This document shows, in pieces, positions 17,631 to 43,652 of a DNA stretch of 64,000 nt. The first letter of the stretch is position 1, and every line of letters starts with the position of its first letter. Below the pieces are notes generated by a model, which was given only the letters and a program-made list of their open reading frames with translations, had not been told where the DNA came from and did no database searches. The translations under genes were made by a program, and so were the position numbers. The DNA comes from Escherichia phage vB_EcoM_WL-3: the sequence record MT968995.1. One strand, written 5' to 3'.

Positions 17631-17888
17631 CTATTTTAAAACTTTTGCATAATCACATGTTACAAACTGTTTCTCTAGCTTGACGATTTTACGAAAGTAT
17701 CTTTTGCATTGGCGAATCTGCCGCTTCGTAGGGCGAACAGCAAACTTAATAAATTCCACTCGACCAAATGGAGGACTTTCTTCTGCTGGAATATCTAGCA
17801 CCAATTCCCACGTATCTGCAATAAGTGCTTTGAATTGTGTATTTTTCCTAACGTTATACGGAGTAGGTTTAAATAAAACAATATGCAT
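17631..17888 (-). CDS. hypothetical protein (85 aa from internal Met; 61.4 position)
   Basis: track ORF 17631-17930 trimmed to the Met that avoids overlap with dmd. Confidence 0.45.
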   Translation of the reverse strand: MHIVLFKPTPYNVRKNTQFKALIADTWELVLDIPAEESPPFGRVEFIKFAVRPTKRQIRQCKRYFRKIVKLEKQFVTCDYAKVLK

Positions 17889-17889
17889 A

Positions 17890-18072
17890 TTATCCTCGGC
17901 AATCCACTTCACACACTTTCTTGTCATCAATGAAAGCTTTAACTAATGCTTTATTAACTTCAGCATACTGAGTAGTAGCCCATTGAACGTCATCTTTCAT
18001 CATTGTGGTTTCTTTAGTAAACATGCTTTCATTCTTAAACCACCCCATAAAAACTACCTTTACCAATTCCAT
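17890..18072 (-). CDS. dmd: Dmd, discriminator of mRNA degradation (antitoxin against RnlA/LsoA)
   Basis: 60 aa starting MELVKVVFMGWFKNESMF; size and position immediately downstream of gene 41, as in T4. Confidence 0.75.
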   Translation of the reverse strand: MELVKVVFMGWFKNESMFTKETTMMKDDVQWATTQYAEVNKALVKAFIDDKKVCEVDCRG

Positions 18073-39490: not shown

Positions 39491-39961
39491 TTAATCATGT
39501 TTCCACACCCCATCGGTATTTGACCAAAGTCGCTGATTATCTGATCCTCGCCACAGCTTTTTGGTCGGAAGATTTTTCTCATACTTCCCATCAATAATAA
39601 CATCAACATATTTAAGCATTTCTAGTTGTTTAATATCTTCAAATTTATATCCTGTCCACAACCAAATGCTTTTATTGGGATAAAGATTTTTTACTGTTTG
39701 AACAATGCAATGAACAACATCTCGGTTATCAGGATAGAGAGGGTCTCCTCCAGTTATAGTTAATCCTTCTATATAATCATTATTCAAACATTCAATTAAT
39801 TGTTCTAGTGTTTCACCAGTGAATGGAACGCCATTTCTAGCATTCCATGTTGATTTATTATAACACCCTTCACATTTATGCAAACACCCCGTAACGAAAA
39901 GAACGACCCTGCATCCAGGGCCATTCACAAAATCACAGGGATAAAATCTATCGTAATTCAT
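39491..39961 (-). CDS. nrdG: anaerobic ribonucleotide reductase activating protein (radical SAM)
   Basis: 156 aa; CxxxCxxC cluster motif GCLHKCEGC. Confidence 0.9.
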   Translation of the reverse strand: MNYDRFYPCDFVNGPGCRVVLFVTGCLHKCEGCYNKSTWNARNGVPFTGETLEQLIECLNNDYIEGLTITGGDPLYPDNRDVVHCIVQTVKNLYPNKSIWLWTGYKFEDIKQLEMLKYVDVIIDGKYEKNLPTKKLWRGSDNQRLWSNTDGVWKHD

Positions 39962-41775
39962 TGGTGTTTAACCCTATGCATGATTTCTTTATTTTTGCCG
40001 AGATTAAATCCGCGTTCATTCGGATTTCCCAAATAACCACAAGTTCTTCTTATTGTGTTCATCTTTTTAGGATCAGTTTCTCCACAAATAGAACAAACAA
40101 ACCCGTTTTCAGTAGGAGTCATTTCATGGGTACTTCCGCATGTAAAACATTTATCTACTGGCATGTTAACACCAAAATAATCTAAATGTTGTGCAGCATA
40201 ATCCCATACAGCCTCAAGACCTTTTAGGTTATTTTTCATATCAGGAAGTTCAACATAAGAAATGTGACCACCTGTCGCAATGAAATGATATGGGGCTTCG
40301 CGAGAAATTTTTTCAAACGGAGTAATATTTTCTTCTACTGAAACGTGGAAACTATTAGTGTACCAGCCTTTATCGGTAACATCTTTTACACTTCCATATT
40401 TCTCAGTATCAAGTTTACAGAAGCGATAACAAAGGTTTTCAGCAGGTGTAGAATACAAGCTAAAAGCAAAACCAGTTCTTTCAGTCCACTGCTTAAGACG
40501 AGCATTCATTTTAGTTAAAATTTCCTGTCCAATATCACGACCGACAAGAATATTCAATTCGTGAATACCAATGTATCCCAAAGACACTGAACTTCTACCG
40601 TTTTTAAATAACTCAATTATATCGTCATCAGGTTTAAGACGAACCCCGAATGCACCTTCTTGGTAAAGAATAGGAGCAACAGTAGCTTTAACTCCTTTTA
40701 AGGAACTAATTCTACACATCAATGCTTCAAAACACAAATCCATTCGTTCATTGAACAATTCGGCAAATTTCTGTTCATTGAACTGTGTTCCAATATAAGA
40801 ATCTAGCGCAATGCGAGGAAGATTCAGTGTTACAACACCAAGATTATTACGTCCATCAAGAATTTCATTACCAGTCGAATCTTTCCATACACTCAAGAAA
40901 CTACGACAACCCATTGGAGAAACAGGAATAGATGAACCGGTGATAGCTTTATTGTTCTTAGCCGAAATGATGTCAGGATACATTCTTTTACTTGCACACT
41001 CTAGAGCAAGCTGCTTAATATCATAGTTCGGATCGTCTTTATAAAGATTAACACCTTCTTCAACGAACATAACAAGTTTAGGGAAAATAGGAGTTATCCC
41101 GTCACGACCAAGGCCTTTAATACGATTTTTCAGAATTGCTTTCTGAATCATTCGTTCAGTCCAGTCAGTTCCCATGCCAAATGTAATTGTTACAAAAGGC
41201 GTTTGTCCGTTTGAACTAAAGAGAGTATTTACTTCATATTCATAAGCTTGGAATGCATCGTATACGTCTTTTTCTGTTTTAGATTGTGCATAATTCAACG
41301 CATCAGCGATTTGCCATTTTTCTGCATCCTCAATATGTTTTGCATAGGTGCGTTTAACATAAGGAGAAAGGACTTTATCTACATTCGCAAAAGTCGTTCC
41401 ACCATATTGATGGGAAGCAACCTGTGCAGTAATTTGTGCCATAATTGCAGTAGCAACACCGATTGATTTAGGAGTTTCAATCTGTGCATTACCGAGCTTA
41501 AATCCGTTCTCAAGCATTCCTTTTAAATCTACTAAACAGCAATTAGTAAATGGAAGAGCAGGGGAATAATCAATATCATGGAAATGAATAATTCCGCTTT
41601 CATGCGCTTTCATAATAAAAGACGGGACCATATTTTTGGCAATGTGTTTAGACACAATACCAGCCATAAGGTCCCGTTGAGTTGGAAAAACACGAGAATC
41701 TTTATTAGCATTCTCGTTTAAAAGGTCTTTATTAGTTTTATGAATCAATCCTTCAATTTCTTTTTCAATTGTCAT
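39958..41775 (-). CDS. nrdD: anaerobic ribonucleoside-triphosphate reductase, intron-free
   Basis: 605-aa continuous ORF; C-terminal glycyl radical motif RRTCGYLG; T4 nrdD carries a group I intron that is absent here. Confidence 0.9.
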   Translation of the reverse strand: MTIEKEIEGLIHKTNKDLLNENANKDSRVFPTQRDLMAGIVSKHIAKNMVPSFIMKAHESGIIHFHDIDYSPALPFTNCCLVDLKGMLENGFKLGNAQIETPKSIGVATAIMAQITAQVASHQYGGTTFANVDKVLSPYVKRTYAKHIEDAEKWQIADALNYAQSKTEKDVYDAFQAYEYEVNTLFSSNGQTPFVTITFGMGTDWTERMIQKAILKNRIKGLGRDGITPIFPKLVMFVEEGVNLYKDDPNYDIKQLALECASKRMYPDIISAKNNKAITGSSIPVSPMGCRSFLSVWKDSTGNEILDGRNNLGVVTLNLPRIALDSYIGTQFNEQKFAELFNERMDLCFEALMCRISSLKGVKATVAPILYQEGAFGVRLKPDDDIIELFKNGRSSVSLGYIGIHELNILVGRDIGQEILTKMNARLKQWTERTGFAFSLYSTPAENLCYRFCKLDTEKYGSVKDVTDKGWYTNSFHVSVEENITPFEKISREAPYHFIATGGHISYVELPDMKNNLKGLEAVWDYAAQHLDYFGVNMPVDKCFTCGSTHEMTPTENGFVCSICGETDPKKMNTIRRTCGYLGNPNERGFNLGKNKEIMHRVKHQ

Positions 41776-42245
41776 TTTAAACTCTTTCTAAGCTGCTTCT
41801 TAAATGAAGCTATTAACTGTGTTTTGGTGTCAGATTCATTATATTCAAATCCTCTTTGAAGCATCTCGGCCATCATTTCCTCTTTTCCTAAACGAGAAAA
41901 TTCCTTTGATTTATCTCCAACAAAGTTAGGGTGAATATTATTTTGGGTGTAATCGGATTTTAAATAAGTAAGTAAATTTTCTAACCATTCAAGATAATCA
42001 ACACCTTGTCCCTTTAAGCCAGAACGATTAAATTTATGCTTCATTTGACCTTCTGCGGCATTGCAGAGATTACAAAGCAATCCACGTACCTTTCCTGCTT
42101 TTGGTCCATTTAATTCATGGTCATGATCAAGATGATTAGCTTGAACATCAGGATTTAGTTCTCGTTGGCAAATTAAACATTTACCGTTTTGTGCATCATA
42201 AAATTTCTGTTTTTCTTCTTTGTATAATTTGCCAGTCAATAACAT
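41772..42245 (-). CDS. 49: endonuclease VII (Holliday junction resolvase)
   Basis: 157 aa with Cys-rich zinc-binding N-terminus; size and position as T4 gp49. Confidence 0.9.
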   Translation of the reverse strand: MLLTGKLYKEEKQKFYDAQNGKCLICQRELNPDVQANHLDHDHELNGPKAGKVRGLLCNLCNAAEGQMKHKFNRSGLKGQGVDYLEWLENLLTYLKSDYTQNNIHPNFVGDKSKEFSRLGKEEMMAEMLQRGFEYNESDTKTQLIASFKKQLRKSLK

Positions 42246-42247
42246 AA

Positions 42248-42283
42248 TAAATACCCTTACCTTAAATAGATAAGGGTATTTAT
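42248..42283 (-). promoter_or_regulatory. stem-loop immediately upstream of the gene 49 start
   Basis: AAATACCCTTA / TAAGGGTATTT inverted repeat (11-bp arms) ending 5 nt before the ATG; T4 gene 49 is known to have hairpin-controlled early translation. Confidence 0.55.
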
Positions 42284-42287
42284 TATT

Positions 42288-42337
42288 TTTAAGTATTGTA
42301 AAACATTCGATGCAATCGTTTATACTGTCGAATCATC
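42288..42337 (-). repeat. ~50-bp direct repeat, copy 1 (3-prime end of the mini-ORF)
   Basis: ~85 percent identical to 42500-42550. Confidence 0.7.
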
Positions 42338-42465
42338 TTTTTAGTAGGACGAGAATAGGTTCCTACGCAAGTGGTCATATGAGGGTCCGTAGAATGTCCT
42401 TTAATAAAAAGTTTCCAAACCTTACCGCCATTTAACTTTTCAGTATAAACCAATTCGGTTTTCAT
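42289..42465 (-). CDS. hypothetical mini-protein (58 aa) with duplicated C-terminus
   Basis: hand-translated MKTELVYTEKLNGGKVWKLFIKGHSTDPHMTTCVGTYSRPTKKMIRQYKRLHRMFYNT; last 15 aa repeat the C-terminus of the upstream 167-aa ORF. Confidence 0.35.
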   Translation of the reverse strand: MKTELVYTEKLNGGKVWKLFIKGHSTDPHMTTCVGTYSRPTKKMIRQYKRLHRMFYNT

Positions 42466-42499
42466 TAAAATGCCTTGTCAGAAAAAGAATTTTGAGTTT

Positions 42500-42550
42500 T
42501 TTCAAGTATTATAAAACATTTGATGCAATCGCTTATATTGCCGAATCATT
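42500..42550 (-). repeat. ~50-bp direct repeat, copy 2 (3-prime end of the 167-aa ORF)
   Basis: pairs with 42288-42337; a shorter motif GTCAGAAAAAGAATTTTG also occurs twice (42476 and 42555). Confidence 0.7.
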
Positions 42551-43005
42551 TGGTCAGAAAAAGAATTTTGTGTTTCAAGCCATTCAATATATTCTGCCGC
42601 AGCTTGCATCAGGTTACCTTCATAATCATCAATATCTTTTTTCAATGCCACTTTAGCTAATGCATATGAAATACGTTCACCTTGAAAAGCGGCTTTAGGC
42701 TTCTGAACAACTTGATTAGTTCGCTCTACAACTTCTTCAATTTCGCCATTTTCAACGGATTCAGTATTCCATAAGCACCAATACGTAATTGGCTTATCAT
42801 AGATATTAATAATCTTTCCGTCGGAAAGTTCAATTTCAATAATTCCAGTATCAGGTTCTATATCATCTTCACATTCTTTTGCAAGTTCACGAACTTTAAA
42901 GACAGTACCTGCACTAAGTTCCGGCCAGTAATTACACAGCCCTGTATCAACACGATTAATTCTAAACCACTTATCTACTGTAATCATGTCCCATCTCCAT
43001 ATCAA
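42502..43005 (-). CDS. hypothetical protein (167 aa; pin-position)
   Basis: ORF in track; T4 has pin (protease inhibitor) near here but identity is not verified. Confidence 0.45.
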   Translation of the reverse strand: MIWRWDMITVDKWFRINRVDTGLCNYWPELSAGTVFKVRELAKECEDDIEPDTGIIEIELSDGKIINIYDKPITYWCLWNTESVENGEIEEVVERTNQVVQKPKAAFQGERISYALAKVALKKDIDDYEGNLMQAAAEYIEWLETQNSFSDQMIRQYKRLHQMFYNT

Positions 43006-43110
43006 TTAAGTCATTTATCGTTGGTTCATTATATACTGTTTCTTCATCAGTGTAAACCGGTTCTTCCGGCTCTGGCTCTACTGTTTCCCATCTAGCCGCC
43101 CACCAGGGTT

Positions 43111-43442: not shown

Positions 43443-43652
43443 TTAATTTCGCAATTTATTAAGTTCTTCATAATCAATCCAGGATTCTAATCCTGATGGC
43501 AAATCAGATTCAATTTCCCACAGAAGTTCTTCAATTTTATGAAGACGATCTAATTCTTCAGCTGGAATAGTAACCATTGATGGAGCTCTTGATACACTAA
43601 TATCGTAAATCATATTTACCCCAGTTTGACCATACAATCGCCGTATTTCCAC
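43443..43652 (-). CDS. hypothetical protein (69 aa)
   Basis: ORF in track. Confidence 0.4.
   Translation of the reverse strand: MEIRRLYGQTGVNMIYDISVSRAPSMVTIPAEELDRLHKIEELLWEIESDLPSGLESWIDYEELNKLRN

Follow-up and report, generated by a model that had tools for sequence, protein, structure and literature searches.

A second TifA-family gene between pin and gene 49 of T-even phages and the probable origin of its repeat-flanked allele by unequal crossover

Introduction

The product of tifA (T4 gene 61.4) inhibits ToxN, the endoribonuclease of the type III toxin-antitoxin system toxIN (Srikant et al. 2022, PMC9391042). TifA acts by way of RNA, which it binds with a basic C-terminal helix that carries a Pro-Thr cap; in the resulting ribonucleoprotein complex ToxN is trapped (Guegler et al. 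2023, PMC10853763). In RB69 TifA the triple mutation of K55, R56 and R59 abolishes RNA binding, and a variable loop of the protein is thought to determine toxin specificity (PMC10853763). The homologues assayed in these two studies were all orthologues encoded next to dmd; the paralogue next to pin was not included, and paralogues are mentioned in neither study. Here we describe the interval between pin and gene 49 in Escherichia phage vB_EcoM_WL-3 (sequence record MT968995.1), in which a gene of the same family, encoding 58 amino acids (aa) and hereafter called ORF58, lies among direct repeats. The whole stretch of DNA that was analysed, 64,000 nucleotides (nt) long, is referred to as the window, and positions are counted from its first letter.

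Two other bodies of work on T4 bear on this interval. Amplifications and deletions at short homologies (6-10 bp) are documented in T4 experiments and arise readily (PMC9391042). For gene 49, sequestration of the ribosome-binding site is credited to Barth et al. 1988 in a passage of PMC2988022. The new points presented below are a series of alleles at the pin–gene 49 junction, the origin of the PinA C-terminus, and a second TifA-family gene without counterpart in T2, T4 and T6.

Results

Direct repeats between pin and gene 49

The window is a segment of a Tequatrovirus (T4-like) genome. On its minus strand the genes run in the order pin (42987-42502), ORF58 (42465-42289), a hairpin, gene 49 (42245-41772) and nrdD, as judged from the list of open reading frames (ORFs) and from synteny with T4 and RB32. 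The features of the repeat region are the following.

42502-42987, minus strand: pin (PinA, Lon protease inhibitor), 161-aa fused form as in T4 (Pfam Inhibitor_I24 and T4 annotation)
42289-42465, minus strand: ORF58, 58 aa, TifA family (Pfam DUF7279, phrog_3272), from Pfam, PHROG, the ratio of non-synonymous to synonymous substitution rates (dN/dS), AlphaFold2 (AF2) and hhalign
42272-42336 and 42485-42549: direct repeat A, 65 nt, 82% identical, spacing 213 (repeat search)
42289-42336, minus strand: copy A1, last 15 codons of ORF58 and TAA, encoding MIRQYKRLHRMFYNT and a stop, most of the basic helix
42502-42549, minus strand: copy A2, 15 ORF58-derived codons and TGA, in frame at the end of pin, encoding MIRQYKRLHQMFYNT and a stop
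42477-42499 and 42553-42575: direct repeat B, 23 nt, 96% identical, spacing 76 (repeat search)
42477-42499, minus strand: copy B1, inside the remnant of a second short pin
42553-42575, minus strand: copy B2, pin codons for TQNSFSD, the true end of the Pin core
42465-42497, minus strand: second-pin remnant, last 11 codons of a short pin (TQNSFSDKAF and stop), now non-coding (comparison with the Type I alleles of G50, EcNP1, pSs-1, BMB16, Aplg8 and GRNsp7)
42497-42502, minus strand: junction A-run, CTTGA6CTC; both inferred parents have CTTGAAA at this place

The initial annotation of this interval had pointed to a direct repeat of about 50 bp that ends two consecutive ORFs with the same C-terminal peptide. 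This is the coding core of repeat A, namely the last 15 codons and stop of pin and of ORF58, in which A1 and A2 are identical at 42/48 nt. The second short duplication that it had noticed is repeat B, and the 58-aa frame said to be bracketed by the repeats is ORF58. A chance origin of the repeat was rejected: among 60 shuffled versions of the 1.1-kb region, no 48-nt direct repeat matched at more than 34/48 positions (mean 28). Between the two genes, the remnant of the second pin supplies the ribosome-binding site of ORF58, and the TAA of the remnant overlaps the ORF58 ATG, as it does in ancestral alleles.

Four alleles at one junction

We compared 24 Tequatrovirus sequences (T4, RB32 and 22 others, from GenBank records and IMG/VR contigs), plus other genera, and consider it likely that the interval is one allele of a polymorphic pin–gene 49 junction in T-even phages. 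Four types were distinguished.

Type I (ancestral): short pin of 148 aa, ending in SFSDRAF and a stop, whose TAA overlaps the ORF58 ATG (TAATG), then hairpin and gene 49; G50, EcNP1, pSs-1, BMB16, Aplg8, GRNsp7
Type 0: short pin, ORF58 cleanly deleted, 169 nt between GTTTTAAT and GTTTTACAAT (GTTTTA(C)AAT repeats); LYE-01, HY03
Type II: 137-nt deletion joining pin GACCGA to ORF58 ATGATTC, an in-frame fusion to the last 15 codons, no ORF58; T4, T6, RB9, wV7, Solly, e11/2, and T2 by a match to the 181-nt query only
Type III: fused pin, TGA, A-run of 5-7, last 11 codons of a short pin, intact ORF58; window, RB32, FN, PYps11T, WilhelmHis, SG1

Type III exceeds Type I by 76 nt and Type II by 213 nt; aligned with T4, T2 and T6, the window carries 213 additional bases, the mini-ORF among them. 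The T4 junction (GAC CGA/ATG ATT) equals the Type I left flank joined to the Type I right flank exactly. The Type III junction is identical in 7/7 Type III sequences except for the A-run (42497-42502 in the window; same site in sequences L002, L010, L063-L065 and L067), whose length of 5-7 bases between phages is consistent with homopolymer slippage in a now non-coding spacer.

A 901-nt megablast was unable to split the allele types, as repeat A was counted twice, but a 181-nt query across the Type III junction did split them and recovered the complete junction in 113 of 450 database records. The repeat structure is thus confined to about a quarter of Tequatrovirus records and is not conserved in all relatives. 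The commonest allele is the fused one without ORF58 (Type II). Rough shares, from the 181-nt query and tblastn counts for ORF58, are 25% for Type III, 48% for Type II, 18% for Type I and 9% for Type 0, the last three being estimates from a spread sample and tblastn totals and no full census.

Beyond Tequatrovirus (G50, EcNP1 and others), ORF58 occupies the same slot between pin and gene 49 in Dhakavirus (JS98), Gaprivervirus (VR7) and Mosigvirus (RB69), and Type I equivalents were found in all three of these phages. In G50, JS98 and VR7 its ATG either overlaps the gene before it (in G50 a short pin) or directly adjoins the end of that gene, and in RB69 it starts 9 nt past the pin stop. In more distant genera a pin of the 146-aa type stands immediately before gene 49. 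A third, independent loss of ORF58 was seen in a Mosigvirus-like contig (L068), in which an ACGTTT microhomology marks the fusion of pin with the 9 terminal codons of the gene downstream. Another Mosigvirus-like contig, L021, has a frameshifted downstream DUF7279 copy, which could be a sequencing error.

The arrangement with ORF58 is the older one

Judged by its distribution and by the Pin profiles, the ORF58 arrangement is older than the T4 layout. The window Pin matches Pfam Inhibitor_I24 with 157.5 bits over residues 4-140, and the PHROG Pin profile spans residues 1-146; residues 146-161 match phrog_3272, the ORF58 family, at positions 43-58. By this comparison Pin residues 147-161 lie outside the Pin family and are derived from the neighbouring TifA-family gene: since the Pin profiles end at 140-146 and the tail matches the ORF58 family, Pin took the ORF58 tail and not the reverse. 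Together with the presence of ORF58 at the same site in four genera, this identifies it as the older state. The interval had first been described as either a recombination footprint or a small inserted module, and it is the footprint that stands; insertion of the mini-ORF does not, since the mini-ORF is the older state.

For the same reason we regard it as very improbable that the mini-ORF and its flanking repeats are a recently inserted mobile cassette, with the repeats as insertion footprints (target duplications). The window does look like a 213-nt insertion between direct repeats when set beside T4, T2 and T6 only, and six Type III phages with pin genes 5-8% apart share an ORF58 without a single nucleotide difference, which resembles recent spread. 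However, the gene sits at a fixed site in four genera, with a start that overlaps or abuts the preceding gene in G50, JS98 and VR7, and the repeats are coding remnants of pin and ORF58 and not target duplications. The ORF list, the repeat search and the Pfam results show no nuclease, integrase or transposase belonging to such a cassette and no terminal inverted repeats. The identity of the ORF58 segment suggests that it spread recently by ordinary homologous recombination through its flanks, which accounts for the pattern; SG1 is a mosaic of this kind.

A probable unequal crossover between two alleles

From the ancestral Type I, two deletions would yield the alleles without ORF58. One of 137 nt would have fused pin in frame to the last 15 codons of ORF58, giving Type II, and one of 169 nt between the GTTTTA(C)AAT repeats would have removed ORF58 cleanly, giving Type 0. 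Relative to the ancestral layout, the novelty of the window is a piece of 76 nt: first a copy of the 15-codon ORF58 tail, attached to pin beforehand in the manner of T4, and after it the 11 terminal codons of another pin gene. The left part of Type III would thus correspond to a Type II allele through the stop of its fused pin, and the right part to a Type I allele from 11 codons before the end of its pin. We propose that the two were joined by an unequal, short-homology crossover between co-infecting phages at the CTTGAAA/A-run common to both parents, which would lie at the end of the tail in the Type II parent and just upstream of repeat B in the Type I parent. Such a crossover would leave two copies of the ORF58 tail, one attached to pin and the other at its original site (repeat A), and two copies of the 3' end of pin (repeat B).

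The window's allele is therefore best read as an unequal crossover between a fused and an ancestral allele, and we hold this explanation as a whole to be probable. Copy A2 differs from local Type I and Type II tails by 1-2 bases, and A1 has three synonymous changes, and a TAA stop, that are seen only in the ORF58 allele of Type III. Over its whole length, that allele is separated from the sampled Type I alleles by a synonymous divergence (dS) of about 0.25. A near-identical A2 beside a divergent A1 and ORF58 fits two different parents.

Both parts could also have arisen within one genome. A tandem duplication of the segment from the pin 3' end to ORF58 at CTTGAAA in a Type I phage, followed by loss of 137 nt from the first copy, would give Type III, and the T4 type would come later by homologous recombination between A2 and A1. 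T4 tandem amplifications at 6-10-bp microhomologies are known (PMC9391042), the 48-nt repeat at 88% identity could pop out 213 nt and leave the exact T4 layout, and polymorphisms of the fused tail (M/K, H/N, TAC/TAT) are common to Types II and III. This route nevertheless requires three events instead of two. Moreover, 12/12 Type II alleles (seven named phages, four IMG/VR contigs and T2, the last by its matching hit to the 181-nt query only) end in TGA followed by AAATAAT or AAAATAAT, like Type I, whereas A1 of Type III ends in TAA in 6/7 sequences. The unique synonymous changes of A1 and the ORF58 dS of about 0.25, set against the near-identical A2, again fit two parents, and we judge a single-genome origin unlikely.

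Two observations sit awkwardly with the crossover between co-infecting phages. Among Type I phages none was found to carry exactly the ORF58 allele of Type III (loop HSTDPH, TAA stop), which leaves the right-hand parent inferred rather than observed, and the Type III junction contains 2-3 A's beyond those expected from a simple crossover at CTTGAAA.

The C-terminal tail of Pin

We regard the 15-residue tail of Pin, with modest confidence, as a passenger, on account of the kinds of change it shows, its missing cap and key residues, and the wide occurrence of tail-less Pins. Of the changes in the fused tail, 5 are non-synonymous and 1 is synonymous, compared with 0 and 3 in the tail of ORF58 itself (Fisher one-sided p = 0.048, with few sites). 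The fused tail is without the Pro-Thr cap and without two of the three residues needed for RNA binding by TifA. Short Pins without the tail are common in Tequatrovirus and universal in the other genera examined. The AF2 model of the 161-aa Pin, with a predicted local distance difference test score (pLDDT) of 59 and less than 50 in the tail, is too poor to judge docking of the tail on the core.

Alternatively, the duplicated peptide might be kept because it serves pin and ORF58 alike; its basic helix might, for instance, let PinA bind RNA or a toxin, or form a surface on which Pin and the TifA-like protein cooperate. All 15 codons and the stop are retained in every fused pin seen, and the independent in-frame fusion in the Mosigvirus-like contig L068 joins EYLERR to FHRDFYNVY at ACGTTT. 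Both facts could mean that the tail is useful and count against a passenger. A read-through fusion of a DUF7279 gene with pin, 191 aa long (P0046), and the DUF7279 genes on both sides of pin in Mosigvirus-like phages point in the same direction. Yet one random deletion in three is in frame anyway, and the ratio of 5:1 against 0:3 (in a small sample), the widespread short pins, the absent cap and RNA-binding residues and the low tail pLDDT all speak for a passenger; we consider a shared function of the peptide quite unlikely.

Within the Pin core, codons ~113-120 (about 42630-42650) occur as two allelic blocks, VALKKDIDD in the window and LAAQENNDG, the latter common to RB69-like Pins. These blocks differ at 11-12/60 nt, which suggests local mosaic exchange.

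ORF58 is a gene under purifying selection

Many related GenBank records list ORF58 as a hypothetical protein, for example as RB32ORF078c. Its dN/dS is 0.06-0.27 in all but one close pair, between-genera comparisons included, and by this measure it is a real gene under purifying selection. A chance ORF was ruled out by dN/dS together with the family matches. The RB32 annotation ('similar to ... pin') would make it a truncated pin duplicate; this was ruled out too, as only the 15-residue tail is common to both and its transfer ran from ORF58 to pin. The family is tiny, with 10 clusters at 90% identity and 9 representatives at 50% in deep searches. The AF2 model (pLDDT 81.7) predicts three beta-strands and a C-terminal basic helix at residues 42-56, most of which corresponds to the duplicated tail.

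The mini-ORF does not lack a translation signal:

42473-42476, minus strand: ORF58 Shine-Dalgarno sequence AAGG, 7 nt upstream of the ATG

In the Type III relatives fetched, AAGG (SG1), AGGA or AGGG stands 7-8 nt before the ATG, where Type I has CGAGCG. In Type I the start of ORF58 is coupled to the pin stop, and this coupling is lost in Type III. The Shine-Dalgarno-like change in the Type III pin remnant is what selection for translation would produce, and ORF58 is probably translated from its own Shine-Dalgarno sequence. A candidate early promoter for a pin-ORF58 transcript (TTTACA-17-TATAAT, 11/12 sigma-70-type, a consensus match only) was noted inside gene 49.1, upstream of pin, at 43028-43056 on the minus strand.

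ORF58 is a paralogue of TifA

ORF58 matches Pfam DUF7279 (PF23945) with 62.7 bits (cutoff 24.5), residues 7-56 falling on profile positions 1-53, and phrog_3272 at 3e-34. The ORF58 and TifA profiles align in hhalign with 91.9% probability (E = 7e-7), and PHROG cross-matches between the two families are reciprocal. The term 'DUF7279' was not found in the literature searched, and searches with ORF58 in PDB, PADLOC and NCBIfam and by fold added nothing.

A search of the window with the ORF58 profile returned a second family member at 17631-17930 with a DUF7279 score of 73.5 bits, which is T4 gene 61.4, next to dmd and sp:

17631-17888, minus strand: tifA (T4 gene 61.4) of the window, adjoining dmd (17890-18072), 97% nt identity to T4 61.4/dmd/sp

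The amino-acid sequence of this TifA is that of T2 TifA (compared with the supplement of PMC10853763). The dmd-tifA pair (T4 61.5/61.4) is thus present at 17631-18072 on the minus strand, and the phage has two DUF7279 genes. ORF58 lies between pin and gene 49 and not next to dmd, where an orthologue would be expected; as the dmd-adjacent tifA is a separate gene at 17631-17888, ORF58 is a paralogue of TifA and not its orthologue.

The ORF58 residues R39-P40-T41-K42-K43-M-I-R46-Q-Y-K49-R50 are invariant or nearly so in 10 homologues. The motif RPTKKMIRQYKR keeps the Pro-Thr cap, and K42, K43 and R46 are the equivalents of TifA K55, R56 and R59. ORF58 alleles differ chiefly in loop residues 24-29.

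By this resemblance, the most likely role of ORF58 would be that of a TifA-like counter-defence protein aimed at a different toxin. The functional context is suggestive, with Pin as an inhibitor of Lon, a PHROG 'antitoxin' gene nearby and DUF7279 genes on both sides of pin in Mosigvirus-like phages. More tentatively, one may picture ORF58 as a second, distinct counter-defence protein of the TifA type, with the same basic RNA-binding helix and a different, fast-evolving loop, that would trap a host RNase toxin other than the ToxN variants targeted by TifA; ORF58, pin (as a block on the Lon-dependent turnover of antitoxins) and the neighbouring phrog_3402 gene would then form a second anti-toxin island, and the Type III cassette might be spreading by restoring the gene to T4-type genomes. 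This is a possibility that we entertain without favouring it.

Several points weigh against a TifA-like role. ORF58 has neither the N-terminal 17 residues and the C-terminal extension of TifA nor its 20-residue loop (about 8 residues in ORF58 against ~20), and the similarity is short, about 25-30% identity and strongest over 24 columns. Moreover, several true TifA orthologues inhibited none of the toxins tested (PMC10853763), so that membership in DUF7279 does not predict a target.

In the neighbourhood, a 69-aa ORF at 43446-43652 on the minus strand matches phrog_3402 (2e-39), whose label reads 'antitoxin from a toxin-antitoxin system'; in Pfam it also has a weak match to T7 Gp5.9 that falls below the threshold. 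It lies upstream of pin, with 49.2 and 49.1 between, in the nrdC-49.2 interval, where T4 has a different gene (49.3). Mosigvirus-like phages have a second DUF7279 paralogue upstream of pin; this paralogue, the frameshifted copy in L021, the fusion in L068 and the read-through protein P0046 were noted at L021 668-865 and 1281-1461 and at L068 1329-1499 and 1501-1926, and P0046 is the upstream paralogue continued into pin.

The gene 49 leader hairpin

Downstream of ORF58 the interval ends in the leader of gene 49, with the following features.

41772-42245, minus strand: gene 49 (endonuclease VII, 157 aa; ORF list, T4 and RB32 synteny and annotation)
42244-42286, minus strand: gene 49 leader hairpin, 5' arm 42286-42268, loop 42267-42263, 3' arm 42262-42244
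42277-42284, minus strand: late-promoter -10-like element AATAAATA, 7/8 match to T4 TATAAATA, inside the hairpin 5' arm

An inverted repeat with 11-bp arms abutting the gene 49 start had been described here at first. The inverted repeat is real and proved larger: at the DNA level its arms are 22 nt long (42241-42262 and 42268-42289) and 91% complementary, and the leader RNA folds into a stable hairpin of 19 contiguous pairs (-23.5 kcal/mol, z = -5.2). Nor does it only abut the gene: AAGGG, the Shine-Dalgarno sequence, and the first two bases of the gene 49 AUG (42245-42243) are part of the 3' arm.

The structure is conserved. We fetched 44 gene 49 relatives from IMG/VR and folded 36 leaders; in 36/36 of these TAAATA is followed at once by a stem that pairs with the Shine-Dalgarno region. 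TAAATA is invariant in an alignment of 21 leaders, always directly before the stem. Covariation across genera is evident in the stem, where 4/7 core pairs have changed on both sides with pairing retained; such compensatory double changes occur in 7-12 of 21 sequences, and the pairs seen are CG, GC, AU and UA.

In T4, early transcripts of gene 49 are reportedly untranslated and late transcripts translated. A promoter function for the late element is taken from work on T4 (Barth et al. 1988, as cited in PMC2988022). The hairpin is this known translational-control device and is already explained. By analogy, it would hide the ribosome-binding site of gene 49 on long early transcripts and free it on late transcripts starting inside the stem; from the position of AATAAATA, late transcripts would lack the hairpin 5' arm.

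The internal GUG of the nested 12-kDa gp49 of T4 is GUA in the window (42089-42087, codon 53). Only 5 of 44 scored gene 49 sequences (IMG/VR and phage-record loci) keep the GUG, the others having GTA or GTT, so that the 'two nested proteins' made from gene 49 seem to be a peculiarity of a few T4-type strains. Beyond gene 49, nrdD (39958-41775, minus strand) encodes 605 aa without interruption and lacks the group I intron, with its I-TevII, by which nrdD of T4 is split.

Discussion

The allele series described here shows repeated independent loss of the same accessory gene, ORF58. ORF58 is a paralogue of a proven anti-defence protein, without counterpart in T2, T4 and T6 and present in about 40% of sequenced Tequatroviruses, including RB32 and the BASEL phage Bas35 ('WilhelmHis'), which makes it a ready candidate for host-range and toxin-inhibition screens. 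In addition, biochemical study of Pin has been confined to T4 PinA, and the 15 C-terminal residues of this protein are a fossil of ORF58 outside the Lon-inhibitor family, which bears on mapping of the PinA-Lon interface.

The gene 49 leader of the window resembles the T4 hairpins that sequester a ribosome-binding site and embed a late promoter (genes 49, e, soc and I-TevI), with the Shine-Dalgarno sequence and AUG buried and TAAATA in or just before the 5' arm. It differs from that of T4 gene 49 in that the stem is perfect over 19 bp, owing to one extra A relative to T4, and in that the internal GUG start, which gives T4 a short gp49 from early transcripts, is absent. Similarly, the window's pin encodes the same 161-aa form as T4, the one used in biochemical work (UniProt P07068), whereas the Pins of many relatives are 148 aa or 136-137 aa long and lack residues 147-161.

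ORF58 is comparable to TifA in its predicted plan, an N-terminal beta-sheet, a variable loop and a Pro-Thr-capped basic C-terminal helix (RPTKxxIRQxKRxxR), and both proteins score above the curated DUF7279 cutoff. Each is encoded by a small gene in a dispensable region of T-even genomes, with allelic variation concentrated in the loop. TifA has 85 aa and ORF58 58 aa; the gene for TifA is next to dmd, whereas ORF58 is next to pin and gene 49 and is absent from T4, T2 and T6.

Finally, the alleles resemble the deletions, duplications and fusions at short homologies known from T4 (rII deletions, Hp17 amplifications, dmd-tifA amplifications). Homologies of 2-10 bp have been reported experimentally (PMC9391042) and are matched by the junctions found here, which lie at homologies of 0-10 nt (GTTTTA(C)AAT, ACGTTT, CTTGAAA). 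The T4 events were laboratory mutants, whereas the alleles here are natural, circulating and recombining in the wild, and one of them combines two parental alleles. The pin–gene 49 junction thus illustrates cleanly, in natural phages, the kinds of event observed when T4 is evolved experimentally: deletions and fusions at short homologies and unequal crossovers.

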